53,847 bases of DNA, from the IMG/VR virus record IMGVR_UViG_3300045988_101358, positions 1-53,847 of that record; one strand, written 5' to 3'. Position numbers and translations under genes: made by a program. This DNA comes from a virus. Numbering within the stretch: position 1 is the first letter of the stretch; the number at the start of each line of letters is the position of its first letter. Under the pieces are notes generated by a model. That model was not told the origin of the DNA and did no database searches. It worked only from the letters and a program-made list of their open reading frames with translations. Positions 620 through 53,847 of this stretch are shown piece after piece.

Positions 620-1060
620 ATGGTTGATTTTCTTGGCAGGGGGGGGGTCTCCCACCTAATCACTAAGATGCTCGACACCGTATATCCGGTGAATAGCATT
701 TATATTTCTCTTGATTCTACCTCCCCGGCCTCTCTGTATGGAGGTACGTGGGAGCGCTTCGGTAAAGGCAAGACGCTGGTTGGCGTAGACGAAGCCGATA
801 CCGATTTCGAAACTGCCGGTCTCACCGGTGGGGAGAAGAAACATACGTTGACAAGTGCGGAGATTCCAGTCATTTCTGGAAGATTCGTACAGCAATCAAG
901 CCATGACTATGGCCTGAGTCTTGTTGTTCGTGGACTTGTTAATGGCGCGGACACGCGATATATGGGAATCGGTCCTATTGTACCTGATGGTACTCACGAC
1001 CAAGGACATAACAACATTCAGCCGTATGTGTCAGTCTATATATGGAAGAGGGTCAGCTGA
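620..1060 (+). CDS. Tail-collar-like fibre/baseplate protein, paralogue 1 (current orientation of switch 1).
   Basis: RBS aaggag. MVDFLGRGGVSHLITKMLDTVYPVNSIYISLDSTSPASLYGGTWERFGKGKTLVGV...GLTGGEKKHTLT matches the Gram-positive phage tail-collar/baseplate pattern. C-terminus is NNIQPYVSVYIWKRVS. Confidence 0.75.
   Translation: MVDFLGRGGVSHLITKMLDTVYPVNSIYISLDSTSPASLYGGTWERFGKGKTLVGVDEADTDFETAGLTGGEKKHTLTSAEIPVISGRFVQQSSHDYGLSLVVRGLVNGADTRYMGIGPIVPDGTHDQGHNNIQPYVSVYIWKRVS
639..647 (+). repeat. Poly-G tract (G9) at codons 7-10 of paralogue 1; currently in frame.
   Basis: ggc agg ggg ggg gtc, counted directly. Confidence 0.9.
818..852. repeat. Left arm of the perfect 35-bp inverted repeat of switch 1, inside the paralogue 1 coding sequence.
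   Basis: ggtctcaccggtggggagaagaaacatacgttgac equals the reverse complement of 1267-1301. Confidence 0.95.
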
Positions 1061-1266
1061 CTCGTTTCCAGATATACACACTCACGAATGGTTGAAGATT
1101 GTTATGAGGCTGCCCACCGCCTGCGGCGTTAATATGGCGTGTATCATCCCACCAAGCCTTGTTATAAGATGGTGAAATAAACCACAGAACATTATATCTG
1201 GTGTCTTGAGTTCCATCCTGATACCCAACATGTAATCCATGATTGTGTTTGGGCATTTCGGCTATA
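1053..1266 (-). other. Silent (start-less) alternative C-terminal cassette for paralogue 1.
   Basis: Minus-strand frame is open through the repeat: ...EYHGLTGGEKKHTLT|IAEMPKHNHGLHVGYQDG...GGGQPHNNLQPFVSVYIWKRVS*. No ATG or RBS of its own. Exactly in phase with the repeat (1+3n nt). Carries the canonical collar motif LT-IAEMPKHNHG. Confidence 0.8.
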
Positions 1267-1301
1267 GTCAACGTATGTTTCTTCTCCCCACCGGTGAGAC
1301 C
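1267..1301. repeat. Right arm of the 35-bp inverted repeat of switch 1.
   Basis: gtcaacgtatgtttcttctccccaccggtgagacc is the reverse complement of 818-852. Confidence 0.95.
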
Positions 1302-1341
1302 ATGATATTCCGAAAGGATCCTATTATGGTATCATTTCTCG

Positions 1342-1854
1342 ATGGGGGGTACTTCTCATCTGATTTCTAAGCTTCTCGACACTATATACCCCGTCGGAAG
1401 CATTTATATGTCCGTGAATGACACCAGTCCTGCTGCGATATTTGGCGGTACGTGGGAGCGCTTCGCCAATGGTCGAACGTTGATGGGTGTTAATTCTGCG
1501 GATAAGGATTTTAGTACCCCTGCTCACACCGGAGGTGCTAAGGAAGTTACACATGCGCATCACACTCCGTTCGGTTCAGAACAGGGTGCCAACCAATCAT
1601 GGAGCGCCATGTGGGATCATCGTGGCTCGACCAAGGTTTCCGCCTATGTGGATAACAAAGTCAAGATTAAGAACGGATATACGAACGAACTATATTTCGA
1701 AACGTATGCCGTCAAATCGCCATATCATTTCTATGTTATGGATGGCGAAACCAGTGATAGCAATGCTACTGCAACGATCGGTGCGACATATTCCACTACC
1801 ATGCCAATTCTTCCACCCTATATCACCGTTTATATTTGGCAGCGTCTCAGCTAA
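1342..1854 (+). CDS. Tail-collar-like fibre protein, paralogue 2. Its natural start (ATG 1326, good RBS) is out of frame because of a G6 tract.
   Basis: cgaaaggatcctatt-ATG(1326) encodes MVSFLDGG, then stops at 1368. The long frame starts at ATG 1342 inside the tract: MGGTSHLISKLLDTIYPVGSIYMSVNDTSPAAIFGGTWERF...YITVYIWQRLS. Homologous to paralogues 1 and 3. Confidence 0.7.
   Translation: MGGTSHLISKLLDTIYPVGSIYMSVNDTSPAAIFGGTWERFANGRTLMGVNSADKDFSTPAHTGGAKEVTHAHHTPFGSEQGANQSWSAMWDHRGSTKVSAYVDNKVKIKNGYTNELYFETYAVKSPYHFYVMDGETSDSNATATIGATYSTTMPILPPYITVYIWQRLS
1344..1349 (+). repeat. Poly-G tract (G6) at the position homologous to the G9 tract of paralogue 1. G5 or G8 would join ATG 1326 to the long frame.
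   Basis: gat gggggg tact, counted directly. Confidence 0.9.
1522..1552. repeat. Left arm of the perfect 31-bp inverted repeat of switch 2, inside the paralogue 2 coding sequence.
   Basis: gctcacaccggaggtgctaaggaagttacac equals the reverse complement of 2053-2083. Encodes AHTGGAKEVT. Confidence 0.95.
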
Positions 1855-2052
1855 CTCTTTGCCAGATATAAACAATATAGTACGGCGGGAGAATGCGAAT
1901 CGGATCGCCGCCTCCGGTATCCTTAGTCGTGGTAACGTTTACTCCGGTAGAATCTGGCGCTGAGGCTTCTGCCTTAGGGCCATATCCTGCCTGATGCCCT
2001 CCGGACCACACAGACATACTGTGAGAGTGCGGAGGAAGCTGAGAAACGGTTA
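1847..2052 (-). other. Silent (start-less) alternative C-terminal cassette for paralogue 2.
   Basis: My translation of the reverse complement, in phase with the repeat (2+3n nt): (EVT)LTVSQLPPHSHSMSVWSGGHQAGYGPKAEASAPDSTGVNVTTTKDTGGGDPIRILPPYYIVYIWQRVS*. It has no internal stop and no start codon, so it is absent from the ORF track. Confidence 0.8.
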
Positions 2053-2102: not shown

Positions 2103-2564
2103 ATGGTAAATTTTCTCGACAATGCCGGAACTCAACATTTCATCACAAAACTGCTCGATACGGTATATCCGGTTAGTAGCATTTATATCACCACTAGCGA
2201 TACCTCTCCTGCGAGTTTCCTTGGAGGCTCCTGGGAGAGGTATGCTAAAGGTCGTACATTAATTGGTGTGAATGAAAAGGACAAGGATTTTATAGATGCG
2301 ACTCATTCCGGTGGTAGCAAGACTCAGATCGTAGATGGTGGGGCCTTCAGGGCTCATATTGCCTTTAATTCTGCTGGACGTTTCTGGTTCCAACAGGATG
2401 AATCGACAGAGCCCTGGAATAGCACATCATCTGTGGATAATGTTAGATATGACTGGAACACTGGGACATGGGGAACTAAAACAGGCATCCGCATATCCAA
2501 CAAACAGACCCTTAATAATCTCCCTCCATTCCAAACAGTCTATATTTGGCGAAGGATCGCGTAA
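2103..2564 (+). CDS. Tail-collar-like fibre protein, paralogue 3. No poly-G tract and no inverted cassette.
   Basis: RBS gaagga. MVNFLDNAGTQHFITKLLDTVYPVSSIYITTSDTSPASFLGGSWERY...PPFQTVYIWRRIA. Confidence 0.75.
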   Translation: MVNFLDNAGTQHFITKLLDTVYPVSSIYITTSDTSPASFLGGSWERYAKGRTLIGVNEKDKDFIDATHSGGSKTQIVDGGAFRAHIAFNSAGRFWFQQDESTEPWNSTSSVDNVRYDWNTGTWGTKTGIRISNKQTLNNLPPFQTVYIWRRIA

Positions 2565-4624: not shown

Positions 4625-5066
4625 TGATAAAATAAAGACGATTATAGAATGGATTTTGATTGGCGTGCTTGGTGTCATATTTAGTGCCACCATGATATTT
4701 AGCGTATGGTGGAGTATTACGCAAGATCCTGATACTATCGATACAACGCCTGTCGAGATTGTCGGAACCTATGAAGTGCGAGATCTTCATGATGAAAGCA
4801 TTCCTGCCAATATCAAAGTCATTGCAATATATCTCAACGATAACCCTAAGGAACGCTTATACTGGTATGGCACTCTGAATATAGATGCATGCAAAGCCGG
4901 AGATTCATGGACCTCTACAGCATACAATACGTCGGATGAAAAACATAAGCAGTTTGAGTGCTATCCCGATACCGGCGAAATTGGTTTTTATATGAAGAAA
5001 GGAGATACCAAAGTATTCGTCAAAGTCGAACCTGAGCATAGTTCGCGAAATTTACAATGTAGTTAA
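4614..5066 (+). CDS. Membrane-anchored hypothetical protein (150 aa).
   Basis: N-terminal TM segment IIEWILIGVLGVIFSATMIFSVWW. Overlaps the previous stop. Confidence 0.6.
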   Translation: MKINDKIKTIIEWILIGVLGVIFSATMIFSVWWSITQDPDTIDTTPVEIVGTYEVRDLHDESIPANIKVIAIYLNDNPKERLYWYGTLNIDACKAGDSWTSTAYNTSDEKHKQFECYPDTGEIGFYMKKGDTKVFVKVEPEHSSRNLQCS

Positions 5067-8912: not shown

Positions 8913-9065
8913 ATGAACCCGAACATGATGCTTGGCTATGTGCAGGCTGGTGTTGCAATCGTTGGTGGAATCGCCTCCGTTATCGCCGGAGTCGGAACCA
9001 TCGCGAGCCTCAACAATCAGCAAGCGCAGATTACCGCGCAGAATGCTCAGGATCAGGAAAACTGA
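8913..9065 (+). CDS. Small membrane peptide (50 aa).
   Basis: cgaaaggatatatt-ATG. MNPNMMLGYVQAGVAIVGGIASVIAGVGTIASLNNQQAQ... Preferred over the RBS-less 8846-9070 ORF in another frame. Confidence 0.5.
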   Translation: MNPNMMLGYVQAGVAIVGGIASVIAGVGTIASLNNQQAQITAQNAQDQEN

Positions 9066-9090
9066 TCTGAGATAATAAATGTTAAGAGTG

Positions 9091-16619: not shown

Positions 16620-16653
16620 AGTCATCATGGGTAGATATTTGAAAGGATCAACT

Positions 16654-17763
16654 ATGAAGGAATCGGAGCTGATGAAGCCCGATGTGGCATTCCCTGGATA
16701 CAAATACGTCCAGGGGCAGAACATCTACCACGGCATTAATGTCGGACGTGGCGGATATGTCTATGCCGAACCTGGTATGTATAGCAACGTCGGGTTATTT
16801 GATGTGGCATCCCTGCATCCACATTCGATCAAGGAGCTCCACTTATTTGGAGACTACACTGATCGGTATGTGAACATCATGGAGGCCCGTATTGCCATCA
16901 AGCATAAGGACCTCAACAAGGCCAAAGCCATTCTTGGTCCGGCGCTTCAGGGTATTAACCTCGAAAGCGAGCAGGACTTCAAGCAATTGGCCCAGGCATT
17001 GAAAATCGTCATCAACTCAACGTACGGTCTGACCTCAGCAGCATTCCCTAACCGATGTAACGATCCTCGCAACAAGAACAACATCGTTGCTCTGCGTGGC
17101 GCGTTATTTATGGTGGATCTGCAACGGGAATGCCAGAAGCGTGGTTGGACCGTCGCGCATATCAAGACGGATTCCATCAAGCTGCCGAATCTGAATGATG
17201 AGATCAAGGATTTCGTCATGAGTTTCGGTCTGAGGTATGGCTATACATTCGAACTCGAATGCGTCTATGAGAAAATGTGTCTTGTGAACAACTCGACATA
17301 TATTTCCAAGATTGCCGAGGGCGATGACGGTATGCGCCAAAGTAAAGATCCGAACTGCCCTTGGTCTGCCACTGGAGCCCAGTTCCAGCAGCCGTACGTC
17401 TTCAAGACGTTATTTTCCCACGAGAAGATCGAATTCGAGGACATGCGAGAGACCAAATCGGTGACTGGGAAGATGTATCTCGACATGAATGAACGTCTTC
17501 CTGAGGATCAGCACGACTACCAATTCATCGGCAAGGTCGGCCAGTTCACTCCGGTTCTTCCAGGCGAAGGTGGTGGAGTCCTCTATCGAGAGAAAGATGG
17601 TAAATACTATGCCGTCGGTGGAACCAAGGGATATCGCTGGCTGGAGTCCGAATCGGTGAAGAACATCGGCGCCAAGGTTGACCAGAGTTACTATCGCCGT
17701 CTAGTTGATGAGGCGGTGCATGATATTTCCGAGTATGGAGATTTTGAGCAGTTCGCTGCTTAG
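16654..17763 (+). CDS. Family-B DNA polymerase, polymerase (palm/fingers/thumb) part.
   Basis: tttgaaaggatcaact-ATG. Motif A DVASLHPHS, motif B KIVINSTYG, motif C HIKTDSI. Confidence 0.75.
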   Translation: MKESELMKPDVAFPGYKYVQGQNIYHGINVGRGGYVYAEPGMYSNVGLFDVASLHPHSIKELHLFGDYTDRYVNIMEARIAIKHKDLNKAKAILGPALQGINLESEQDFKQLAQALKIVINSTYGLTSAAFPNRCNDPRNKNNIVALRGALFMVDLQRECQKRGWTVAHIKTDSIKLPNLNDEIKDFVMSFGLRYGYTFELECVYEKMCLVNNSTYISKIAEGDDGMRQSKDPNCPWSATGAQFQQPYVFKTLFSHEKIEFEDMRETKSVTGKMYLDMNERLPEDQHDYQFIGKVGQFTPVLPGEGGGVLYREKDGKYYAVGGTKGYRWLESESVKNIGAKVDQSYYRRLVDEAVHDISEYGDFEQFAA

Positions 17764-18657: not shown

Positions 18658-19266
18658 ATGGCAATCAAAAAGAAGCTCGATCGTGTTAAGCTCGACTCCT
18701 GCGAGATCATCTTCCGCAACTTCTCCGGAACCGGTGGCAAGTTCAATCCCGAAGGCAACCGCAACTTCTGTGTTATTCTTTCCGAAGAAGAAGGCAATGC
18801 ATTGCAGGCTGCTGGATGGAATGTCAAGCGTCGCCCTCCGCGTGAGGATGGTGAACAGCTTCCTCCATACCTCAAGGTGAACATCGGCAAGGACAGCTTC
18901 GAGAAGGGCCGTACCAAGATCTATCGTATGGACGTGGATACTCAGGGCAAGCCTCGTCGTGACGCCAATGGAGATATTGTCAAGGCCGTTCTGGATCCAC
19001 AGACGGTTGGCGGTCTGGATTCGGCTTATATTGTGGACGCTCAGGTCATCCTGTCGCCATATTTCTACGACATTCAGGGTCGCAGTGGCATTTCGGCCTA
19101 TGTGGACGAGATGACCGTCGTGGTACAGATGGACCCCTGGACTGCCAAGTATGAGGACTTCAATTCGGAGAACCCTGACTCGGCCATGAACACTACGACC
19201 TTCGAGGTTGTCGGTGCAAAACAGTTCAATGGTAAGCTTGCCGGAACGGACGATCCTCAGTTCTAA
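18658..19266 (+). CDS. Possible phage ssDNA-binding protein.
   Basis: ctgaaaggaatattatc-ATG. IIFRNFSGTGGKFNPEGNRNFCVILSEEEGNALQAAGWNVK resembles phage SSB-like proteins, and the gene sits in the replication module. Weak call. Confidence 0.35.
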   Translation: MAIKKKLDRVKLDSCEIIFRNFSGTGGKFNPEGNRNFCVILSEEEGNALQAAGWNVKRRPPREDGEQLPPYLKVNIGKDSFEKGRTKIYRMDVDTQGKPRRDANGDIVKAVLDPQTVGGLDSAYIVDAQVILSPYFYDIQGRSGISAYVDEMTVVVQMDPWTAKYEDFNSENPDSAMNTTTFEVVGAKQFNGKLAGTDDPQF

Positions 19267-23432: not shown

Positions 23433-23729
23433 ATGAAACGAGAAGGAAAGTTTCAGAATGAACTTATCACAGACATCAAGCGACTGTTGCCTGGTTGTAT
23501 CGTGATGAAGAACGACCCTGATTATATTCAGGGCATCCCAGACTTGACCGTGCTCTACAAGAAACGTTGGGCTTGCTTGGAAGTCAAGCGAACCAACAAT
23601 TCTCCCCATCGTCCGAATCAGGATTATTACGTTCAGCTCATGAACTCCATGAGCTTTGCTGCATTCGTATGTCCTGAGAACAAAGACGAAGTTCTATCTG
23701 CACTATTCAAGGAACTGGAAAGACTATGA
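23433..23729 (+). CDS. VRR-NUC-type nuclease.
   Basis: EGKFQNELITDIKRL...GIPDLTVLYKKRWACLEVKR...NQDYYVQLMNS fits the VRR-NUC D...E-x-K...Q pattern. Confidence 0.6.
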   Translation: MKREGKFQNELITDIKRLLPGCIVMKNDPDYIQGIPDLTVLYKKRWACLEVKRTNNSPHRPNQDYYVQLMNSMSFAAFVCPENKDEVLSALFKELERL

Positions 23730-24283
23730 AATTCAATGATCATCATCAACTTGATGGTATGCATTCATTTTTGAGTGCATCGAAGTGGCATTGGGTAAAT
23801 TACGCACCTGAGCATCTCGATGATATTTATCGCTCATCGATGGCTGCACAGCTTGGAACCGAACTTCATGCTTTGGCTTCAGACCTTATCAAGCATGGCG
23901 TGAAGCTTCCGCGCAATAAGAAGACACTCAACCAGTTTGTTAATGATGCTATTGGTTGGAAGATGGCTTCCGAGCAAGTTCTGTTTTATTCTATGAATGC
24001 TTTTGGCACAGCTGATGCTATTTCCTTCGATGGCAAGCTGCTTCGCATTCATGATCTTAAGACTGGAGTCATTCCGGCTCATATGGAGCAGCTTGAAATC
24101 TATGCTTCATATTTTTGCCTTGAGTATGACGTGAAGCCTGAAGACATCGACATGATTCTGAGGATCTATCAGAATGATGACATTGTCGAGGTAGAACCCG
24201 AACCTCAGGATATTCGTGACATCATGGGTAAGATCGTACTCTTTGACAAACGTATTGAACAACTCAAGCAGGAAGGAGTCTGA
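23726..24283 (+). CDS. PD-(D/E)XK (RecB/Cas4-like) nuclease.
   Basis: GTELHAL..., FGTADAISFDGKLLRIHDLKTG, QLEIYASY. Confidence 0.55.
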   Translation: MKFNDHHQLDGMHSFLSASKWHWVNYAPEHLDDIYRSSMAAQLGTELHALASDLIKHGVKLPRNKKTLNQFVNDAIGWKMASEQVLFYSMNAFGTADAISFDGKLLRIHDLKTGVIPAHMEQLEIYASYFCLEYDVKPEDIDMILRIYQNDDIVEVEPEPQDIRDIMGKIVLFDKRIEQLKQEGV

Positions 24284-24284
24284 C

Positions 24285-27182
24285 ATGTTCGTGGTTGACG
24301 AATCTGAACTTGAACATTCCGGAACTCCTCATGCTGGAAGTGTTCCGCATTCCGGTCGATACAAGTGGGGCTCTGGAGAAAATCCAGGTCAGCACGACAA
24401 TTCGTTCAGAACTCAATATAGGAATTTCAAGAAGCAGGGTTTTACTGAAGCCGAAATTGTCAAAGCAATGGGGCTTAAGTCTACTGCTGAACTTCGAGTT
24501 CTAAACAAGGTCAATCGTGAACAGGAAGGCTTCGAGCAGACCCAGCGAGCTAGGAAGCTGATTGAAGAGAACGGATATTCTCTATCCGCAGCAGCTCGTA
24601 AGGTTGGCTTGAGTGAGTCGACGCTTCGCAGTCGTCTTAAGAGTTCTTTCGAAGAGCGAGCTTCTCGTACTTCGAAGGCTGCATCATATTTGCAGGAGCA
24701 AGTCGACAAAGGCGCTCTTGTGGATGTCGGTGAAGGCTCTTGGACTTATCTTGGAGTCTCCAAGGCTGTGCTCGATGCAGCTGTCCGTAAGCTGAAGGAT
24801 CAAGGATATTCTGTTGAGACTATCGAAGTCCCTCAGGTTTCCGATCCCGATCATATGACTAAGATCAAAGTTCTGGCGCCGAAAGGTATGGCTTGGAAGG
24901 ATATTCAGGCTAACAAGAACAAGATTCAAGTGATCGACCACAGCTTTGATGAATCTCCGCTTATTTCCAAATCAGACAAAACGCTCCCTGAGAGCGTCAG
25001 TTCTAAGAGAGTCAAGGTTGTCTTTGATGAGGAAGGTGGAACTCAGCGAGATGGAAATATTCTTGTTCGTCCTGGCGTCGAAGATGTAGCTCTTGGTGGT
25101 AATCACTACGCTCAGGTTCGAATCGCCGTGGATGGGACACACTATCTTAAGGGTACTGCCATGTATGGTGACCCTAAGGATTTCCCTCCTGGTGTCGATC
25201 TCATTTTCAATTCCAACAAACCAAGATCTGTTGGCAAGCTTGGTGCTTTGAAAGAGCTGAAGACCGACAAAGATGGTAAAATTGATCAGAACCTTCCTTT
25301 TGGTGCTGTGACTCGTAAGCTTACCTACACTGACAAGAATGGTCAGGAACATATTTCCAAGATCAATCTTGTTCGTGAGGAAGGCGAATGGGATACCTGG
25401 TCTAGGAATCTTCCTTCTCAGATGCTGTCTAAGCAATCTCGTGAGCTGGCTCATCGCCAGTTGGGCATTGCTTATGAACGTTCTTTCTCTGAGTATCAGG
25501 ATATTCTCAAGCTGAGTAATCCTGCCGTCAAGCGAAAGCTTCTTCAGGAATTTTCTGATGAGTGTGATCGTAAGGCTGTGGATCTCAAAGCTGCTGCGAT
25601 GCCTCGTCAGTCTACCCATGTTATTCTCCCGATTCCTTCTTTGAAGGACAACGAAATATATGCTCCTTCATTCCGTAATGGCGAACGAGTTGCATTGATT
25701 CGATTCCCTCATGGTGGAACGTTTGAGATTCCAGAGCTTATTGTAAATAACAATAACCGTGAAGCTCGACAGCGTTTGGGGAATGGCAAGGGCATGTCTC
25801 TTGATGCGGTTGGTATTAACCATAAGGTTGCTGCTCGACTTTCTGGAGCTGACTTTGATGGCGATACTGTTCTGGTTATTCCAAACAATCGTGGAGAAAT
25901 TAAGAGTACTAATCCTCTTAAGGGTCTTGAAGACTTTGATCCTTCTTCAGCTTATCCAGCATATCCTGGAATGAAGAAAGTCAAGACTGATAAGGCTTTT
26001 AATAAGCAGGCTGAAATGGGAAAGGTCAGTAATCTTATTACTGACATGACCATTAAGGGTGCTACTCCTGATAAGATCGCTCGTGCTGTTCGTCATTCTA
26101 TGGTTGTCATCGATGCTGAAAAGCATAATTTGGATTGGCGTAAATCCTATGAGGATAATGGTATTGCTGATCTTAAACGAGAGTATCAGGGCACTGCTCC
26201 TAATGGCCAGCTTCGTGGCGCATCGACTCTTATTTCTCGAGCATCTGCTACGCAATATGTGAATGCTCGAGAAAAAAATCCTGCAAGATATGGAGGTTCC
26301 ATAGATCCCGATACTGGAAAAATATGGTATAGGGAAACTGGAAAGGGCTCTACGGAAGTTGCTTATCGTGACCCTACCAAACCAGGAAAGAGGCCAGGCT
26401 CTCCAGGTAGGAAGACCTGGGCTTCAGAGCGCAAGTTCCATGCTCTTGTAAAGAAGGGTGAAATTCCGGAATCTACAAAAATTATAGATACCAGGTTTAA
26501 GCCCCGTCTTCAGGAGTCTAAGAAGATGCTTGAAGTAGATGATGCTTTTGAGTTGTCTTCTGGTACCAACATGGAATGGGAGTATGCTACCTATGCTAAT
26601 AGGATGAAGGCCCTAGCTAATGATGCTAGAAAGGCTTTGCTAGCCACTCCTAATGCGCCCTATAGTCCATCCGCCCATAAGGCCTACGCTGAAGAGGTGG
26701 CTTCTCTCAAGGCTAAGCTTAACACAGCCTTGAAGAACAAGCCTCTTGAACGCAAGGCTCAGCTCATTGCCGGTAACATAGTACGCAGCCAGCGCATCTC
26801 TAACCCTGACCTAGACGAAGACGAGTTGAAGAAGCTGCGCACCACAGCGCTTGAGACAGCTCGTGCTAGGACAGGAGCACTCAATGCTGAAGGCAAGCGT
26901 GTAACATTCACTCCACGTGAATGGGAAGCTGTGCAAGCTGGTGCCATCTCCCATACCATGCTCACTGAGCTGCTGAAGAACGCAGACAGTGGTGTGGTAA
27001 AGGAGCTTGCTACACCACATAGTGACAAGGGTAAGATGAACAATGTCTTGATTGCTCGTGCTCGAGCCTTGCTCAATGCAGGCAACATGACACAGAATGA
27101 AGTGGCTGATCTACTTGGCGTTAGTGTTAACACCTTGAAGGCCAACCTCAACCCCAAGTCGAAGTTGAATCAAGAGAGGTGA
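24285..27182 (+). CDS. 965-aa HTH-flanked protein with a beta-prime-like double-psi beta-barrel catalytic motif (candidate YonO/RdRP-like single-subunit RNA polymerase).
   Basis: ggaaggagtctgac-ATG. ERVALIRFPHGGTFEIPELIV...VGINHKVAARLSGADFDGDTVLVIPNN parallels beta-prime R-x-P-x-x-H ... NADFDGDQM. HTH-like segments at the N-terminus (GYSLSAAARKVGLSESTLRSRL) and C-terminus (MTQNEVADLLGVSVNTLKANL). Confidence 0.45.
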   Translation: MFVVDESELEHSGTPHAGSVPHSGRYKWGSGENPGQHDNSFRTQYRNFKKQGFTEAEIVKAMGLKSTAELRVLNKVNREQEGFEQTQRARKLIEENGYSLSAAARKVGLSESTLRSRLKSSFEERASRTSKAASYLQEQVDKGALVDVGEGSWTYLGVSKAVLDAAVRKLKDQGYSVETIEVPQVSDPDHMTKIKVLAPKGMAWKDIQANKNKIQVIDHSFDESPLISKSDKTLPESVSSKRVKVVFDEEGGTQRDGNILVRPGVEDVALGGNHYAQVRIAVDGTHYLKGTAMYGDPKDFPPGVDLIFNSNKPRSVGKLGALKELKTDKDGKIDQNLPFGAVTRKLTYTDKNGQEHISKINLVREEGEWDTWSRNLPSQMLSKQSRELAHRQLGIAYERSFSEYQDILKLSNPAVKRKLLQEFSDECDRKAVDLKAAAMPRQSTHVILPIPSLKDNEIYAPSFRNGERVALIRFPHGGTFEIPELIVNNNNREARQRLGNGKGMSLDAVGINHKVAARLSGADFDGDTVLVIPNNRGEIKSTNPLKGLEDFDPSSAYPAYPGMKKVKTDKAFNKQAEMGKVSNLITDMTIKGATPDKIARAVRHSMVVIDAEKHNLDWRKSYEDNGIADLKREYQGTAPNGQLRGASTLISRASATQYVNAREKNPARYGGSIDPDTGKIWYRETGKGSTEVAYRDPTKPGKRPGSPGRKTWASERKFHALVKKGEIPESTKIIDTRFKPRLQESKKMLEVDDAFELSSGTNMEWEYATYANRMKALANDARKALLATPNAPYSPSAHKAYAEEVASLKAKLNTALKNKPLERKAQLIAGNIVRSQRISNPDLDEDELKKLRTTALETARARTGALNAEGKRVTFTPREWEAVQAGAISHTMLTELLKNADSGVVKELATPHSDKGKMNNVLIARARALLNAGNMTQNEVADLLGVSVNTLKANLNPKSKLNQER

Positions 27183-27187
27183 GACAC

Positions 27188-27433
27188 ATGGAACAATACA
27201 TGCTGTCCACCAAGGACAATCCTTACAGCCCTTGGACTCAATGGACTGCTTGGTATGGTTGGGATGAGCAACATGGTTACCATTCAACCGCTTTGCTCGG
27301 TCGCTTCGCTCGCACTAGCGATACATTGAGTGACATTGATCAAATGAAAGTAGTCAGCGATGCTATAGATAGTATTATAGCTCTGTATTCGGATTCTCCT
27401 TTTATCAAAATTAAAAAACCAGAAAGCATTTGA
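27188..27433 (+). CDS. Conserved phage protein of unknown function (81 aa).
   Basis: MEQYMLSTKDNPYSPWTQWTAWYGWDEQHGYHS. Confidence 0.6.
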   Translation: MEQYMLSTKDNPYSPWTQWTAWYGWDEQHGYHSTALLGRFARTSDTLSDIDQMKVVSDAIDSIIALYSDSPFIKIKKPESI

Positions 27434-27798
27434 GTTTCTGATTTTATAAAATTTTTGATAAAGAGGTCCGAAGACATAGGGGGGGGTCGCGAAAACAACG
27501 ACCCCCTCAGCATCGCCGGCCTCCTGGAAAAATCCCCGGCGGGAATTTTTGATAGAACATTACGGGTTCGCCAGGCAAACAAGTAGCCGGGTGGCCCATG
27601 AATCCTTCTCAGATACCCAGGCTCTCCTTTCAAAGAGCCCAAGAAAGTATGGTGGAACGTAGATTGTGCAGCGAGTTCCTTTCGTTAACCATATTCAATC
27701 TTGGGTAAAGTCCTGGTGAACCCATAAAGTTCTATCACAAACTCTCGTCATATTTCCAGGTGATCTTGCTTTCGAGCTAATTTGGAGGTGAATCACGT
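27434..27798. promoter_or_regulatory. Structured 365-bp non-coding region upstream of terS. Probable packaging-initiation (cos/pac) region.
   Basis: No credible ORF. Several GC-rich hairpins, a G8 tract, and direct repeats atttttgata (27451 and 27545). Lies immediately 5' of the terS-HNH genes. Confidence 0.45.
27479..27486 (+). repeat. Poly-G tract (G8) forming the 5' arm of a hairpin.
   Basis: ataggggggggtcg cgaaaacaa cgaccccct. Confidence 0.85.
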
Positions 27799-28131
27799 AT
27801 GGCTCGACCGAAGAAACTTCAAAAGGACACTCGACCGCTCACTCGACCGGCTGTAACGCCGGAGGGTAGGGAAGATCAGATGATTAGCCTTGCGGTTGAT
27901 CTTGCCGAGAAGCAACTTCGAGAGGGTACGGCATCATCTCAGGTCATTACGCACTTCCTGAAGCTTGCAACCACTCGAGAGAATCTCGAGAAAGAGAAAC
28001 TTCGTCACGAGAATGAACTTCTCAAAGCAAAGACCGAAGTTCTGCAATCTTCGAAGCATGTCGAAGAATTGTATGCGAAAGCTATCGATGCTATGCGTTC
28101 ATATTCTGGCGGCGGTTCTGATGAGGCATAG
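27799..28131 (+). CDS. terS: Putative terminase small subunit.
   Basis: ggaggtgaatcacgt-ATG. MARPKKLQKD...GTASSQVITHFLKLATTRENLEKEKLRHENELLKAKTE. Sits next to HNH and the cos-like region. Confidence 0.5.
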   Translation: MARPKKLQKDTRPLTRPAVTPEGREDQMISLAVDLAEKQLREGTASSQVITHFLKLATTRENLEKEKLRHENELLKAKTEVLQSSKHVEELYAKAIDAMRSYSGGGSDEA

Positions 28132-42269: not shown

Positions 42270-42653
42270 ATGGGAGTGACAGTAGAAGTTAAAGGCGATT
42301 GGAGGAACACTATCAAGTTTCTATCCGATCTTAAAGTCTCTTCATCAAAGCTCCGCTCTGTTCTTGAAGAGTGTGGGCGTGAAGGTGTAGCCGCTTTGTC
42401 TGCTGCCACTCCCGTTGAATCCAGTTTAACCGCTAGCTCGTGGGATTATGAGATTCATTCTACAGCTAATGGTTATCAAATCGACTGGATCAATACAAAT
42501 CTTCATGAGGGTGTCCCGATCGCAATCATCCTCCAATATGGGCATGGCACTGGAACCGGCGGCTATGTCGAAGGCAGGGACTACATTAATCCCGCCATGC
42601 GACCTATATTTGATAAACTCGCTGATAAAGCTTGGAAGGCGGTGAACTCGTAA
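42270..42653 (+). CDS. HK97 gp10-like tail/neck component.
   Basis: AALSAATPVESSLTASSW...GHGTGTGGYVEGRDYINPAMRPIFDKLADKAWKAV. Confidence 0.45.
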   Translation: MGVTVEVKGDWRNTIKFLSDLKVSSSKLRSVLEECGREGVAALSAATPVESSLTASSWDYEIHSTANGYQIDWINTNLHEGVPIAIILQYGHGTGTGGYVEGRDYINPAMRPIFDKLADKAWKAVNS

Positions 42654-45600
42654 TGGCGAACATTGATCAGCGCGTCGTAACGCTTAAACTTGACAGCTCG
42701 TCGTTCCAGAAGAACGCCAATGATGCCATCAAGACCATCGATAAGCTTACTCAGTCTTTGAGTAAGCTGAGTTCTTTGAAGGTCAATGACACTCTTAACA
42801 AGTCTCTATCAAGCGCTAATTTCAGCAAGCTTTCCAAGAGCGCTCAAGACAGCTTTGCTCAAATCGACAAGGCATCTAAGAATGTTAAGTTCCAATCTCT
42901 AATTTCCAATGCCGGAGCAGCATTCAGTCAGATTTCGGTCAAGGCTGGGCAAACGACTCTTGAGGGTTTGGCTAACAGTGTTCAAGCAATCGGCGACAAG
43001 TTTAATAGCCTTCGACTTATCGCTATTGGTACACTGACCAATATTGCTAGTCAAGCTGTCTCTTCCGGTGCGCAACTCGCTAAGAGCTTCACTATTGAGC
43101 CTATCATCGATGGTTTCCGTGAGTATGAGCTTCAGCTGAACTCGGTTCAGACAATTCTGGCTAATACGGCGTCAAAGGGAACAAACATTGATCAGGTCAA
43201 TGCAGCTCTGAATGAGTTGAACACTTATGCTGACCAGACAATCTATAACTTCTCTGAGATGACTCGTAACATCGGTACCTTCACTGCTGCCGGTGTTGAT
43301 CTGGACAAGTCTGTGGCCTCGATTAAGGGTATTGCAAACCTTGCCGCTATGTCGGGCTCGTCCTCACAGCAGGCATCGACTGCAATGTACCAGCTTTCGC
43401 AGGCTATCGCCGCCGGTAAGGTTCAGCTTATGGACTGGAACTCGGTGGTCAATGCCGGTATGGGTGGTGAGGCCTTCCAGAATGCTCTGAAGCGTACCGC
43501 GCAGCACTTCGGCACCGACGTCGACTCGATGATCAAGAAGTACGGATCATTCCGAGAGTCGTTGACCAAGGGCGAGTGGCTTACCACTGATGTTCTGACC
43601 GAAACCCTGAAGCAGCTGTCTGGTGCATATTCTGAGGCGGATCTGGTCGCTCAGGGCTATAGTGAGGATCAGGCTAAGGCCATCGTTGATATGGCCAAGA
43701 CTGCTGAAGACGCAGCAACTAAGATCAAGACCTTCTCTCAGCTTATGGATACGCTGAAGGAAGAGGTTGGCTCTGGTTGGGCAACCACATGGCAGATTCT
43801 GATGGGTAATTTCGAGGAAGCTCGAGATTCCTGGACTGCCATTGGTAATCAGCTTCAGGCTTCTATCGGACAGGTGTCCAAGGCCCGTAACGATCTACTC
43901 CAGGGATGGGCGAATCTCGGCGGTCGTAAGGAACTCTTCGACAGCCTGACCGACTCCCTCAAAATGGTAGCATCGTGGATCACTCCTATCAAGCAGGGAT
44001 TCCGCGATGTCTTTCCTCCCACTACTGCTCAGCAGCTCTTCGATATCACCAAGGGTCTTCATCAGTTCATTAAGGATGCCACCCTGACTTCGGATCAGTC
44101 CGAACGTCTTCGTGGTGTGGTGAAGACCCTGGCCTCCGGACTGAAATATCTTCTCGATGCTTTGAATGGAGCTCGAGAGGGTCTGTCCAAGATGATTGGC
44201 GGCGTAAAGGGTGTCATCAACGGTCTTTTGTCCATCTTTGATGGCGTAGCCAAGCTTACACAGTCGCTAACTGGTGGAACCAATGCCGCCAATGCGTTCA
44301 ATCAGGCATTTAGTCTAGTCGGTTCTGGTCTGAATGGCGTGGCCAAGATCCTCAGCCTTGTTGGTGTTGGTTTCTCGACACTAGCAAGCGCTGTCGGCAA
44401 TTCGCTAGGTAAGATTTCTGGTGGTATCAGTAATCTTACCGCTGGTACTGGTCAGATCCTCTCCAGTATCGTTACCATGTTCCAGAGCGTGTTCGGAGCC
44501 CTTCCGACGCTGCTGAATTCTGTCACCAATGGTATCGGTAACATCTTTAATAATGCGTTCAAGAACATCCCGTTCAAGGATATTCTTGCCACTGTTAATG
44601 AAGTTATCAAGACCATCATGATGTGGAACATCAATGGTATAATCCAAGGCTGGAAAAAGAACGCCAAGGACGCTCAGAGTATTGCCGATAAGATCCAGGA
44701 TATTGTAGCCTCCTTCAAGTCTATTCCTGAAAACATTACCAAGGTTCTGGACAAAACCAAAGACTCTATTTCCGCCTTCACCATGTCGATTAAGGCGAAT
44801 ATTCTTCTGAAGATTGCGGCGGCCATTGCTGTTCTGGCTGTGTCGCTCAAGCTTCTGAGTAATATTCCTCTTGATAAGCTTGCCTCTTCCTTGGGTATGC
44901 TTGCCGGTGGCATGACCGTGTTCGGCGGTATGGCACTTGGCTTCATCATCGCTCTTGACAAACTCTTCAAGGGCGCAAAGCGCATGGCGAAGCTCATGGT
45001 GCTCGTGCAGCAGTTCGGTAAGATGGCTAAGGCTATGGTTATATTTGCCGCCGCCATTCGAATACTAGCTGATGCTATGACTGTCTTTGGCGATATGGGC
45101 TGGGGCCAGATATTTAAGGGTGTTGTAGCCATTGGCGCTCTATCTGGCGTTCTGGTGGCAGTCTCAAAGCTTATGAGCGGCACCAAGGGCATGGCCAAGA
45201 CGTCCATGATGCTGATCGTATTCGCGGCAGCTATCAAGATTCTTGGTTCTGCTTTAAAGGGCATTGGCTCTCTCGACTTCCACATTATTGCTAAAGGTCT
45301 TTTAGGCATTGGTGCATCCACTGCCATCATGATCGTTGCAATGAAATCCTTGAATAAGGGTATGACGAAGCTGGTAAAGTCCGGCATCATGATGCTGACA
45401 TTTGCCATCTCGATGAAGACCATGGCTAGCGCTATCAAGAGCTTTGAAGGCATTGACGTCAAGACAATTGCCAAGTCTCTCGGTGCTCTTGGCGCAACAA
45501 TGTTGATTCTCTCCATCTATACCAACAAGATGAAGAGTGCCAACATCAAGACTGCTGCTACATCCGTCGCTTCGCTGATGCTATATGCTGAGGCATTGAA

Positions 45601-48600
45601 GCAGATGGGTGAGGCTATTGCTGCGTTCAATGATATTTCCATCGAAGGCGTCGGTAAGGCCATCCTCAGTATTGGGGCACTTCTTACAGAATTCGTTCTG
45701 TTTACGAAGCTCGCCAAGGCTGACAAGATCGGTGAGACTGGTGCTGCTCTTGCTGCCATGGGTGCTGCTGTTCAGCAGTTCGCTCAGGGTGTCGAGATCA
45801 TGGCCAAACTCTCTTGGGAAGAACTTGGCAAGGGTATCGTCGGTGTTGGGGCCGGTCTGACCATCATGGTCTCGGCTATGCGCTTCATGCCGAAGAATAT
45901 GCTCAAAGAATCTGCCGGAATGGTTGTGTTCTCCCTCGCGTTGAACGTGATGGCGAATGCGCTCAAGGAAATTGGCAGTATGAGTGTCGATCAGCTAGCC
46001 AAGGGCATCCTCGCCCTCGGTGGAGCGCTCTCCGTTATGGTCATCGCATTCAAGGCCCTTGATAGCACCAAGGGTTCGACTACCAAACTGGCCGCTTCTA
46101 TGCTGCTGTTTGGTATCTCACTTTCGATGATCGCAGGGCCAATCAAAATGCTGGGCGAAATGCGGACCAAGCAGGTCGCCCAAGGCCTTATCGCTATGGC
46201 TTCCGCCTTCGCCGTAATTAGTGTGGCTGCCAAACTGCTCTCCGGTATGACTGGGCAGATGCTCAAACTTGCTGGAAGCATGGCCGCTATTGGTGCTGCT
46301 ACGATCGTGCTGGGTCTTGGCCTTACGGCTATGATCTATCCTATCGAGAAGCTGGCCGGTCTTGGTTCGGAGGGGCTCGCACAGGGCGTTGGCGGCCTAG
46401 TGGCTGTCATTGGCACTGTCGCGGTACTCATTCAGAGCATCAACATGATGCCTAAGCTGAATCTCAAGGCTGTGGCGTCAATTGCTATAATGGCCGTCGT
46501 TATTGCCGGTGTTGGTGCCATTGTCAAACAGTTGGCTCAGCTTCAGCCGGGCGCGGCGCTTCAGGCTGCTACCGGTTTAAGTGAAGTCCTTCTGTCTGCT
46601 TCAGCATCTCTGGCTATTCTGTCGAAGATCAATGTCAGTGGTGCAGCCGTAGCTGTAGCGGCCCTTGGTGTTCTCATCGCTGGTGTGGCAGCTATCGTTG
46701 CTGCGGCTGGTGCCCTTGCTCAGATCCCTGGAGCCAAATGGCTCATGGGTGAGGGCCAGGCGTTCTTGCTTCAGATTGGCCAGGCTATCGGCGGCTTCTT
46801 CGGAGGCATTGTCGGTGGCGTTGTTGGTGGCGTCATGTCCACCATAGCTGGTCAGCTTCCAGCTATGGGCAGCGCTCTGTCCGATTTCTTCAATAACGCT
46901 AAGCCGTTCTTCGACGGCATGAGCGGAATGGGCACTGGCGTTCTTGATGGTGTGAAGAATTTGGCCCTTGCTATGGTGGCGCTCACAGGCGCAGAACTGT
47001 TGCAGGGGATCACCAACTTCCTTACCGGTGGAGGCTCTAGTATCGGAAAGTTCGGCCAGCAGATTGCCGAACTTGGACCATATCTGAAGAAATTCGGAGA
47101 ATCGGTTAAAGGTCTGGACGCAGGATCGGTTGAAGCTGCGGCTAATGCAGCCAAGGCTCTGGCTGAGTTCGCCAAGAACATTCCGAATGAAGGCGGATGG
47201 GCTGCCAAGATCATGGGTGAGAATGATATTGCCGCTTTTGGCATGAAGCTCATCCCATTCGGCACGTGCATCAAGACGTTCTCTGACGAAGTCAAGGGGC
47301 TTGATGCTGGTGCTGTTGAAGCCGCCGCCAGTGCTGCCAAGGCACTTGCTGCATTCGCCAAGAACATCCCGAATGAAGGCGGATGGGCCGCTAAGATCAT
47401 GGGTGAGAATGATATTGCTGCCTTTGGCAAGAAACTCGTCCCGTTCGGAAAGGCCATTAAGGAATATGCTACAGCAGTAAAGGGTGTCGATGGCTCGGTC
47501 ATCCAATCCTCCGTCAATTCTGCCAAAGCAATTTCTGAGTTCGCCAAGAATATTCCTAATTCTGGTGGACTTGGCACCTTGTTTACCGGTGACAACGATA
47601 TCGCTGTATTTGCTTCGAAGCTTGGACCGTTCGGCACTGCTATGTCGGACTTTGCCAAGAATCTTGGTAAGAATTTCAAGCCGGAAACGGTGACCGCTGC
47701 GGCCAATGCGGCCAAGGCAATCGCTGAATTGGCGAATAATCTTCCGAATAGTGGCGGTCTAAAGCAAGCATTCAGCGGAATCAAAGATCTTGGTGAATTC
47801 GCTGGTAATCTTAAGGGTCTTGGAACAGGCATCAAGGATTACGCGAATTCCGTCAAAGATATCAAGCCAGAAATGGCTGATAGCATTCGCAATTCGGCTA
47901 ATGCCATGTTGGCTATTGCTGATCTTCAGAAAGCCCTTCCGAAGATCGGTGGTTTTGGCGATGTCTTTAGTGGCGTTCAGGACTTCAGCACGTTTAATGC
48001 GCAGTTGAAGCCTCTTGGTGAGGCAATTAAAGACTATGCTGATTCGGTCAAGGACTTCAATCCAGAAACAGTGTCGCTTATCCAAAATTCTATTAATGTT
48101 TTGACGGAATTTGGTAAGCTTCAATCTGCTTTGCCAGCTGTTGGCGGTGTTGCACAGGCATTCAATGGTACTCATGACTTCTCGGTTATGGGTTCTCAGC
48201 TTGGGAGCCTTGGCGATGCTCTGGAAGATTACGTCGGGTCCATAACCACGGCCATGACCCCCGATATAGTGCCGTTGATTCAGTCGTCTATCGACTGCCT
48301 GAACGCATTGGGTGGCCTGCTGAATTCGCTTCCGGCGATTGGTGGTATAGCACAGTTCTTTAACGGTCATCAGGATTTTAGTGTTCTGAGCGGAGGTTTG
48401 ACGGGCCTCGGCAGCGCTATGTATGACTATGTGACATCCATATCCACTGCCATGACCGTGGATACTGTACCAGTCATTCAAGGGTCTATTGCCTGCCTGA
48501 ATGCATTGGGCGGCCTACTGAACAGTCTGCCACCTGTGGGTGCTATTGGTGACTGGTTTACCGGTCATCAGGATTTCAGTGTTCTGAGTAACGGTCTCAG

Positions 48601-53360: not shown

Positions 53361-53847
53361 ATGCGCATTGTTGATAAAGATAACAAAGAACTCGATCCGA
53401 ATAAACTGGATCTTCGTAAGGGGCATCTGGTGGATGACAAGATCTTCGTCAAGCACCATGATGCTCAGGAGAAGGTCGAGGAAGTCTCTCATTATGAGAC
53501 CGTTCGTTTCTATTCGAATGGCGGCATGGATGTCGAGAAGGTCATTGACACCCCTGGCCAGGAGGCTAAGGATGCCTATGACGAATATGAGGATGTCCAG
53601 CGCTACATCGAGTACACTCAGAGCGAGTTGGACACTCAGGACAAGAGCACTGCCACTGCCGTCGTGAATGGTAACATGAACGATCAGATCATGACGGCTA
53701 TGCCCTACCTGATTGCTCAAATGTCTACGATGATCGATGATAATACTGCCGGACAGTTCCCTGGTCTGTTCGAGACATTCGAAGAAGGCAATAAATATCC
53801 GGCCAAGACCATCGTTCGCTACAAGACCGGTCTGTATCGTGTTATTC
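53361..53847 (+). CDS. 5' portion of a wrap-around tail-fibre/receptor-binding-like gene. It continues at 1-401 once the overlap is collapsed (248 aa total).
   Basis: ATG 53361 follows tgaaaggagcgcgca. The frame (MRIVDKDNKELDPNKLDLRKGH...) stays open to the window end and is in phase with ORF 15-401. Confidence 0.7.
   Translation, partial: MRIVDKDNKELDPNKLDLRKGHLVDDKIFVKHHDAQEKVEEVSHYETVRFYSNGGMDVEKVIDTPGQEAKDAYDEYEDVQRYIEYTQSELDTQDKSTATAVVNGNMNDQIMTAMPYLIAQMSTMIDDNTAGQFPGLFETFEEGNKYPAKTIVRYKTGLYRVI
53707..53847. repeat. Second copy of the 141-bp terminal overlap (equals 1-141).
   Basis: Identical to bases 1-141. Confidence 0.95.

Follow-up and report, generated by a model that had tools for sequence, protein, structure and literature searches.

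Can short runs of guanine beside the start codons of phage tail genes act as switches, turning the genes on and off as the runs gain or lose bases? The question is raised by a locus in the virus record IMGVR_UViG_3300045988_101358 from IMG/VR, whose complete stretch of 53,847 nucleotides (nt), hereafter the window, we analysed. Three tandem small genes (620-1060, 1326/1342-1854 and 2103-2564), here called paralogues 1, 2 and 3, are placed between the tail genes and the holin gene, and the first two carry a poly-G tract near their 5′ ends. An earlier note on this DNA proposed that homopolymer slippage in these tracts adds ON/OFF phase variation to two DNA inversions at the same locus. The comparative data presented here, with tracts of different length between identical flanks, support the proposal, and we consider it probable that the G runs are hypermutable contingency loci that switch paralogues 1 and 2 ON and OFF, together with independent inversion of their cassettes.

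Poly-G tracts in two of three tandem tail genes

Paralogue 1 (620-1060, plus strand), taken from the list of open reading frames (ORFs), encodes a tail protein of 146 amino acids (aa) with a Gp10_C domain (PF21939, E = 4.8e-27; PDB 2FKK, E = 1.3e-8). It is preceded by the Shine-Dalgarno sequence AAGGAG (608-613), read directly 6 nt upstream of the ATG at 620. The 5′ end of the gene is ATG GTT GAT TTT CTT GGC AGG GGG GGG GTC, in which a run of nine G (G9, tract 1, 639-647) occupies codons 7-10 (AGG GGG GGG G). The frame is open at G6, G9 or G12, and the gene is thus in frame (ON) as assembled.

Paralogue 2 has a G6 run (tract 2, 1344-1349) at the homologous place. Its ATG at 1326 lies 7 nt downstream of the Shine-Dalgarno sequence AAAGGA (1313-1318, read directly), an arrangement that also precedes paralogue 3 (direct repeat D3). 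From this ATG the sequence reads ATG GTA TCA TTT CTC GAT GGG GGG TAC ... TAA, so that the true start opens only a truncated frame (1326-1370, plus strand) encoding MVSFLDGGYFSSDF, with a stop at 1368-1370 after 14 codons; direct reading, the ORF list and the frame table agree on this OFF state. Tract 2 is in frame with ATG 1326 at G5, G8 or G11, and G6, G9 and G12 share the frame of another ATG at 1342. The long frame as assembled (1342-1854, plus strand, 170 aa, Gp10_C domain, PF21939 E = 1.9e-23) opens solely at this second ATG. This start codon overlaps the tract at its 5′ edge and lacks a Shine-Dalgarno sequence, AAAGGA being 23 nt upstream. Paralogue 3 (2103-2564, plus strand; ORF list and Pfam) encodes a Gp10_C protein of 153 aa and reads MVNFLDNAGTQHF / GAC AAT GCC GGA at the tract-equivalent place; it has no poly-G tract and, in this lineage, no alternative cassette. 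Direct reading thus bears out the earlier note on the position and frame of both runs, on the stop that ends the short frame, on the internal start lacking a ribosome-binding site and on the tract-less third copy.

G and C homopolymers are generally avoided in this genome. The window has three G runs of six or longer and no C run of that length, where base composition predicts about nine and about five, and two of the three G runs occupy equivalent codons in paralogues 1 and 2. A run of nine or more G is expected only 0.09-0.14 times, which agrees with the claim that such a run is improbable by chance. The genome was also described as moderately AT-rich, and it is AT-rich, but only mildly so (G+C content of 47%). 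Codon usage gives the same picture, as GGG is the rarest glycine codon (51 of 1025, 5%) and GGG-GGG makes up one of 75 Gly-Gly codon pairs. A terminator-like hairpin at 1341-1360 was set aside as an explanation, being weak and no more than expected from shuffled sequences.

Tract length polymorphism among relatives

Using exact-protein look-ups and IMG/VR, we collected about 25 assemblies of the same phage, 96-100% identical. They represent several cohorts of human-gut samples, belong to no fewer than five study series (LIUW16, VATA22, BRIT20, BOND22 and IMG/VR) and were made with several assemblers. The flanks of both tracts are identical across these assemblies, but the tract lengths, whose comparison among related phages had been suggested as a check, differ. 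Tract 1 ranges from G7 to G10, with G9 in 14 assemblies, G8 in three (L011, L021 and L024), G10 in two (L028 and L040) and G7 in one (L022). Tract 2 is G9 in 10 assemblies, G8 in nine and G6 in two, the window and L234. The earlier note expected that G5 or G8 would restore paralogue 2; the frame table, calculated for G5 to G12, agrees, and G8 is a common natural allele. It gives a 176-aa protein, MVSFLDGGGTSHLISK..., or one of 144 aa with the alternative cassette. Gene calls in the relatives vary in the same way: paralogue 2 is called as 176 aa or as 170/171 aa, and paralogue 1 as 146 aa or as 130/132 aa.

Two further alleles at these sites involve more than length. Assembly L040 has a substituted tract 2 (G7+C, GGGGGGGC) that is in frame, and L016 and L017 have a fusion gene that joins the 5′ end of paralogue 1 to the paralogue 2 body, with an interrupted tract, GGTGGGGG, that locks the gene ON. 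This variant, for which the relevant parts of L016 are 1025-1555 and 1804-2088, has no separate paralogue 1. A TGG-to-TGA nonsense codon is present in paralogue 3 of L016, L017 and L019.

Every ON/OFF combination of paralogues 1 and 2 was seen, including both genes OFF in L021, L024 and L028, and no relative examined has a poly-G tract in paralogue 3. In a census of 143,350 aligned bases with 2,015 substitutions, nearly all indels are at three G tracts, the two described above and an intergenic one; of the others, an A5 run and a GAT repeat have one each, and the hybrid allele of L016/L017 contributes alignment noise. Tracts 1 and 2 combine a slippable homopolymer (about seven bases or more, a length that tract 2 reaches in the relatives) within a reading frame, switching of that frame with length, and polymorphism confined to the tract, as is typical of contingency loci.

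The third tract is a G8 run at 27479-27486, situated in a 365-nt gap after the RNA-polymerase-like gene region and before a gene at 27799-28131 (110 aa, possibly the small terminase). It is G8 in the window and L032 and G9 in L030 and L031. We tried it as a technical control, but it varies too and so fails to separate biology from error. Because this intergenic run also varies, length variation alone shows hypermutability, not selection. The case for selection on tracts 1 and 2 is based on their conservation and on codon usage. The intergenic tract is able to pair with CGACCCCC downstream. Four independent contigs (L036-L039) all start exactly at window position 27523, pointing to a physical end of the genome (cos or pac) close by.

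Conservation and recurrence of the tracts

In a diverged lineage (L041-L044, 72-78% identity) the flanks have changed (…CTTGAT-Gn-ACCCAACATC), and paralogues 1 and 2 both keep uninterrupted tracts, as G8/G10 and G8/G9; paralogue 3 is still without a tract. The same design is found at about 40-46% protein identity in Bifidobacterium phage BitterVaud1 (MT006236), a cultured phage from the honeybee gut. Its Gp10_C gene begins ATG GTA AGC TAT TTG GAT AGG GGG GGG GCT, that is ATGGTAAGCTATTTGGATA-G9 with the G9 run at codons 7-10 and the product MVSYLDRGGAAYLVKK..., and downstream of it comes a tract-less paralogue. The gene is at 5435-5902 of contig L003, equivalent to 26878-27345 of MT006236, where the G9 run occupies 26897-26905. 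In the IMG/VR contig L002, one homologue contains G9 and another has G10 a short way upstream. The G10 run (4925-4934) is immediately 5′ of TTG 4937, the sole available start of its Gp10_C gene, and since it sits in the ribosome-binding region and not in the reading frame, it may act on initiation rather than on frame.

To cover a wider range of viruses, we scanned 2.9 million viral contigs for a homopolymer of eight followed, after 28-42 nt, by the motif YP[VI]xxI[YF]. The scan for G8 gave 12 matches, 10 of which are in true Gp10_C genes of at least four further lineages, and none of the 3 matches with C8 or the 80 with A8 was in a Gp10_C gene. Two near-twins differ in frame, L133 (G8, 9020-9081) being in frame and L127 (G9, 1310-1372) out of frame. 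IMG/VR contigs of up to 115 kb with G8 or G9 at or just past the Gp10_C start codon are L127, L133, L132, L134, L126 and L128/L129/L131; L126 starts exactly at its tract. In the L131 lineage the tract is accompanied by two cassette inversions flanked by perfect repeats of 33 and 27 nt. The tract is hence conserved despite codon bias and divergence of its flanks, and recurs as G only, a pattern that would be expected of a contingency locus under selection.

Invertible C-terminal cassettes

Paralogues 1 and 2 also carry inverted repeats that flank alternative 3′ cassettes. Segment 1 is bounded by a left arm at 818-867, inside paralogue 1 at the GGEKKH motif, and a right arm at 1252-1301, separated by 24 nt from the paralogue 2 start codon (pair I1, 50 nt, 88% complementary). 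Between them, on the minus strand, is the alternative C-terminal cassette of paralogue 1 (1053-1251, …MPKHNHGLHV…NNLQPFVSVYIWKRVS, within the minus-strand ORF 1053-1271), which enters the gene by inversion. Segment 2 has arms at 1522-1552 and 2053-2083 (pair I3, 31 nt, 100% complementary) and contains the alternative cassette of paralogue 2 (1847-2052, minus strand, …PPYYIVYIWQRVS, with an ORF at 1847-2017). Both minus-strand cassettes end in the C-terminal motif of the family. Segment 1 is inverted in L011, L024, L025, L040, L042 and L044, and segment 2 in L006 and L019-L029, with products of 144, 139 or 138 aa. As both segments occur in both orientations among the relatives, the two inversions claimed in the earlier note are real.

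Contig breaks or N gaps were noticed at the repeat arms: L008 and L004 have them at the left arm of segment 1, and L001 and L007 end exactly at the left arm of segment 2. We found no resolvase or integrase domain in about 40 ORFs scanned with Pfam (10 of them also with PHROGs), a search in which ORFs below about 175 aa were not all included. Inversion may be carried out by an enzyme of the host, or the short repeats may recombine with each other. The window does contain genes for an exonuclease (23726-24283) and a single-stranded DNA-binding protein (18658-19266).

Nature of the paralogous proteins

Each paralogue has a short N-terminal part of 16 residues (MVxFLD..HLIxK), which is followed by a Gp10_C domain (PF21939, E values from 5e-27 to 1e-20; 96, 84 and 75 bits against a cut-off of 27, profile positions 1-139). 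Residues 13-145 of paralogue 1 match residues 445-601 of T4 gp10 in the PDB (2FKK). The AlphaFold2 model of paralogue 1 is poor, with a predicted local distance difference test score of 65, and is confident only in the core strands and in helix 9-21. By sequence, the Gp10_C domain is a homologue of the C-terminal head domain of T4 baseplate gp10, but T4 gp10 is a 602-aa structural wedge protein, while here the domain alone follows the short N-terminus and is present in three tandem copies. The genes had been called fibre paralogues. There are indeed three paralogues, but the term fibre is too loose for small proteins that are almost wholly Gp10_C domain and not long fibres; judging from Pfam, PHROG and gene position, they appear to be small tail-tip or baseplate-distal proteins. 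The tract-coded residues 7-9 are the sole variable spot between the invariant M1, V2 and L5 (D6 is nearly so) and the HLIxK helix.

Alternative explanations

The strongest competitor to contingency loci holds that the tracts are neutral mutational hot spots in dispensable, redundant genes, with paralogue 3 sufficing and no adaptive switching. Variation of the intergenic G8 run is in its favour, and so are the OFF alleles of paralogue 2, as common as ON ones, and the genomes with both paralogues OFF. The paralogue 1/2 fusion in L016 and L017 and the paralogue 3 nonsense codon in these two and L019 likewise point to fluid gene content. However, a G8-G10 run built from the rarest glycine codon should then be broken by synonymous changes, yet both paralogues retain it at 72-78% identity. 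BitterVaud1 and no fewer than five other lineages of the family have such a run as well, and the recurrence is specific to G on the coding strand. Moreover, the frames of paralogues 1 and 2 downstream of the tracts are intact in all relatives, with no other frameshift or stop, unlike those of pseudogenes. We regard neutral drift as an improbable account of the tracts.

It is less probable still, though it deserves consideration, that the tract tunes the amount or the N-terminus of the protein and is no plain ON/OFF switch. Translation would then start at ATG 1342 with G6 or G9, giving a product without MVSFLD, and at a TTG with G7 or G10 of tract 1, or transcription would slip on G9 and so correct the frame in some of the mRNAs. 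Twelve alleles of tract 2 are in the frame of the internal ATG and none is in the third, start-less frame; this absence is not significant, however, and the equivalent null frame does occur at tract 1 (G8, three assemblies). Gene callers accept internal starts (products of 170/171 and 144/145 aa), but ATG 1342 is without a Shine-Dalgarno sequence, and its product would be probably defective, lacking M1, V2, L5 and D6, which are invariant or nearly so in distant relatives. Moreover, the tract-adjacent ATG is conserved neither at tract 1 nor in BitterVaud1 and L128/L131. A phage-encoded RNA polymerase-like protein (phrog_4291) could matter for slippage of transcripts.

It is very unlikely that the polymorphism is a sequencing or assembly artefact concealing fixed lengths (e.g. 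G9 and G8) and an intact paralogue 2 in the window, for although G runs are error-prone, contig breaks are frequent near them and L004, otherwise identical to the window, has G9, the lengths differ by 2-3 bases, tract 2 is bimodal (nine G8, ten G9) and not spread about one value, likely same-sample pairs from different pipelines agree (L006/L007, L010/L013 and L016/L017), and the substituted alleles (G7+C in L040, the interrupted tract in L016/L017) are real differences at the same site. A homopolymer error in the G6 call, the refuting outcome named in the earlier note, is possible for the window assembly, G6 being a rare call whose sole other example (L234) comes from a contig at 0.5x coverage; the size of the length differences, the agreeing pairs and that second G6 assembly make such error an unlikely cause of the polymorphism in general.

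We also considered ribosomal -1 frameshifting on G GGG GGG and set it aside, as the DNA length itself varies. Heptamers made of G only are poor slippery sites for -1 frameshifting. Since DNA length variation suffices for the observed frames, neither programmed frameshifting nor slippage at the RNA level is needed, although the latter is possible.

Several points weigh against the view of the tracts as contingency loci, which we nevertheless prefer. The assembly counts are not fully independent, as some assemblies are probably from the same sample. Tract lengths are those of consensus assemblies. A preference for ON lengths has no statistical support: 14 of 20 alleles are ON at tract 1 and 9 of 21 at tract 2, a difference between tracts that is not significant. 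Out-of-frame alleles of paralogue 2 (12) slightly outnumber the in-frame G8 (9), which would also fit relaxed selection on a redundant gene. OFF is possibly leaky, because G6 and G9 of tract 2 keep the internal ATG in frame. As the variable intergenic G8 shows, any long G run is unstable or difficult to call, whatever its place. Finally, that the small tail-tip proteins are receptor binders is probable, judging solely from their family and gene position.

Genome and host context

The window is a complete phage genome, assembled as a closed circle of about 53,706 bp, whose ends share a direct overlap of 141 nt (1-141 = 53707-53847). It belongs to a human-gut siphophage (about 53.7 kb). All recognisable genes are on the plus strand of the window. 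Domain matches identified the tape measure gene (42632-50566, plus strand), Dit, a Sipho_Gp37-type tail protein, the portal and a protease-capsid fusion, as well as the lysis genes, a GH25/LysM/CW_7 endolysin and a Dp-1-type holin. The ORF at 15-401 is the 3′ end of a 248-aa tail gene whose start is near the end of the window.

The closest genomic relatives of the endolysin are from Collinsella, Bifidobacterium and Olsenella (47-51% identity), and the terminase shares 75-78% identity with its counterparts in Streptomyces and Gordonia phages. These similarities suggest that the host is likely a gut actinobacterium. A near-identity DNA search of a collection of isolated phages gave no match to the window, and a scan of JGI metagenomes with paralogue 1 recovered one distant locus only.

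Three other regions deserve mention. The phage has its own polymerase-like gene at 16627-17763. A 988-aa ORF at 24216-27182 matches phrog_4291 ('RNA-dependent RNA polymerase') over its full length with 1104 bits and may be a YonO- or crAss-like single-subunit RNA polymerase, which, if true, would be unusual in a siphophage this small. Directly upstream of paralogue 1, a 60-aa ORF (422-604, MARINSYPKASSMNNDDVLIIDGATAGTRTV...) is similar to the N-terminal part of a fibre-like protein of 312 aa that L131 encodes at this place (MARLNTYTRTSQPSDSDVFVIDSTTGSAGTRTV...), and may be a truncated fibre anchor; in L022 this ORF has a 3-nt insertion in a GAT repeat.

Proposed mechanism and comparison with known systems

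In the mechanism that we propose, slipped-strand mispairing during replication of the phage DNA would add or remove G's. As the tract is situated after the conserved MVxFLD and before the Gp10_C head domain, any length change that is not a multiple of three would stop translation after 11-16 codons, and a later slip would bring the frame back. Paralogue 1 would accordingly be ON at G9, paralogue 2 ON at G8 and OFF in the window (G6), and paralogue 3 constitutive. Independently, paralogues 1 and 2 each receive one of their two C-terminal cassettes through DNA inversion. A phage population would then be a mixture of virions with different sets of tail-tip proteins, probably a form of bet-hedging on host surface variation, or on which bacteria can be attached to. 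The scheme presumes that slippage is frequent and reversible within one population, that the alleles called OFF, a term taken from the frame alone, would make no functional protein, and that the paralogous proteins would determine adsorption.

A broader reading, which we put forward only tentatively and consider rather doubtful, is that the locus is a two-layer host-range generator conserved in a family of gut phages with likely actinobacterial hosts, BitterVaud1 included: a 5′ poly-G tract would set ON or OFF and a 3′ cassette inversion form A or B, without a recognisable invertase, and tract 2 may be a three-state switch. If so, each of the two genes would be absent, in form A or in form B, which allows up to nine virion types per genome. 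The three states of tract 2 would be a full-length protein, one truncated at the N-terminus and started from the tract-edge ATG, or no product.

The closest parallel is in Campylobacter phages of the genus Fletchervirus. As related in two papers that both cite Sorensen et al. 2021 (Cell Rep 35:109214), these phages have G7-11 tracts in receptor-binding protein genes, which are switched ON and OFF and produce mixed progeny that counters variable host receptors (PMC10579305; bioRxiv 10.1101/2025.10.21.683753). Both cases have in-frame G tracts in tail or receptor-binding genes, with ON/OFF switching as the consequence of length change. They differ in that Fletchervirus is a myovirus of Campylobacter, whereas the present phage is a gut siphophage with a probably actinobacterial host, going by the nearest relatives of its endolysin in Collinsella and Bifidobacterium. 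Here, moreover, the genes encode small proteins with Gp10_C only, the tract is at codons 7-10 beside the start, and the same genes undergo C-terminal cassette inversion. The present case is known from sequence comparison only.

The contingency loci of T2 and T4 (agt and rIIA) are poly-A runs in genes that counter host defences, and homopolymers are under-represented in the tail-fibre genes of coliphages (Gomez, Barrick and Waters, bioRxiv 10.1101/2025.10.21.683753). The likeness to our case is in homopolymer slippage, reversible frameshifts and bet-hedging; here, in contrast, the homopolymers are concentrated in tail genes. Regarding the second layer, in-gene inverted repeats that swap C-terminal receptor-binding cassettes are shared with the Mu G/Gin and P1 C/Cin systems and with the Rin shufflon of Bifidobacterium prophages, which has invertible tail-fibre segments (PMC6109161). 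Those systems lack the poly-G layer, and neither a serine nor a tyrosine recombinase turned up among the ORFs scanned here.

Biological significance

The mechanism itself is known; the phage, the host group and the protein family are new to it, and both layers act on the same genes. To our knowledge, experimental proof of phase variation in receptor-binding genes comes from essentially a single group of phages, Campylobacter Fletchervirus. The locus described here would be the same device in an abundant siphophage of the human gut, with natural ON and OFF alleles across many people, on top of DNA inversion. It introduces no new principle but gives a well-documented natural example from the human gut with a family-wide pattern. 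It is also a caution for viral metagenomics, in that a frameshifted tail gene in an assembly can be a functional switch and not an error. As BitterVaud1 is in culture, the idea is directly testable. The finding suggests that stochastic host-range switching based on slippage is a wider strategy of phages in the gut.

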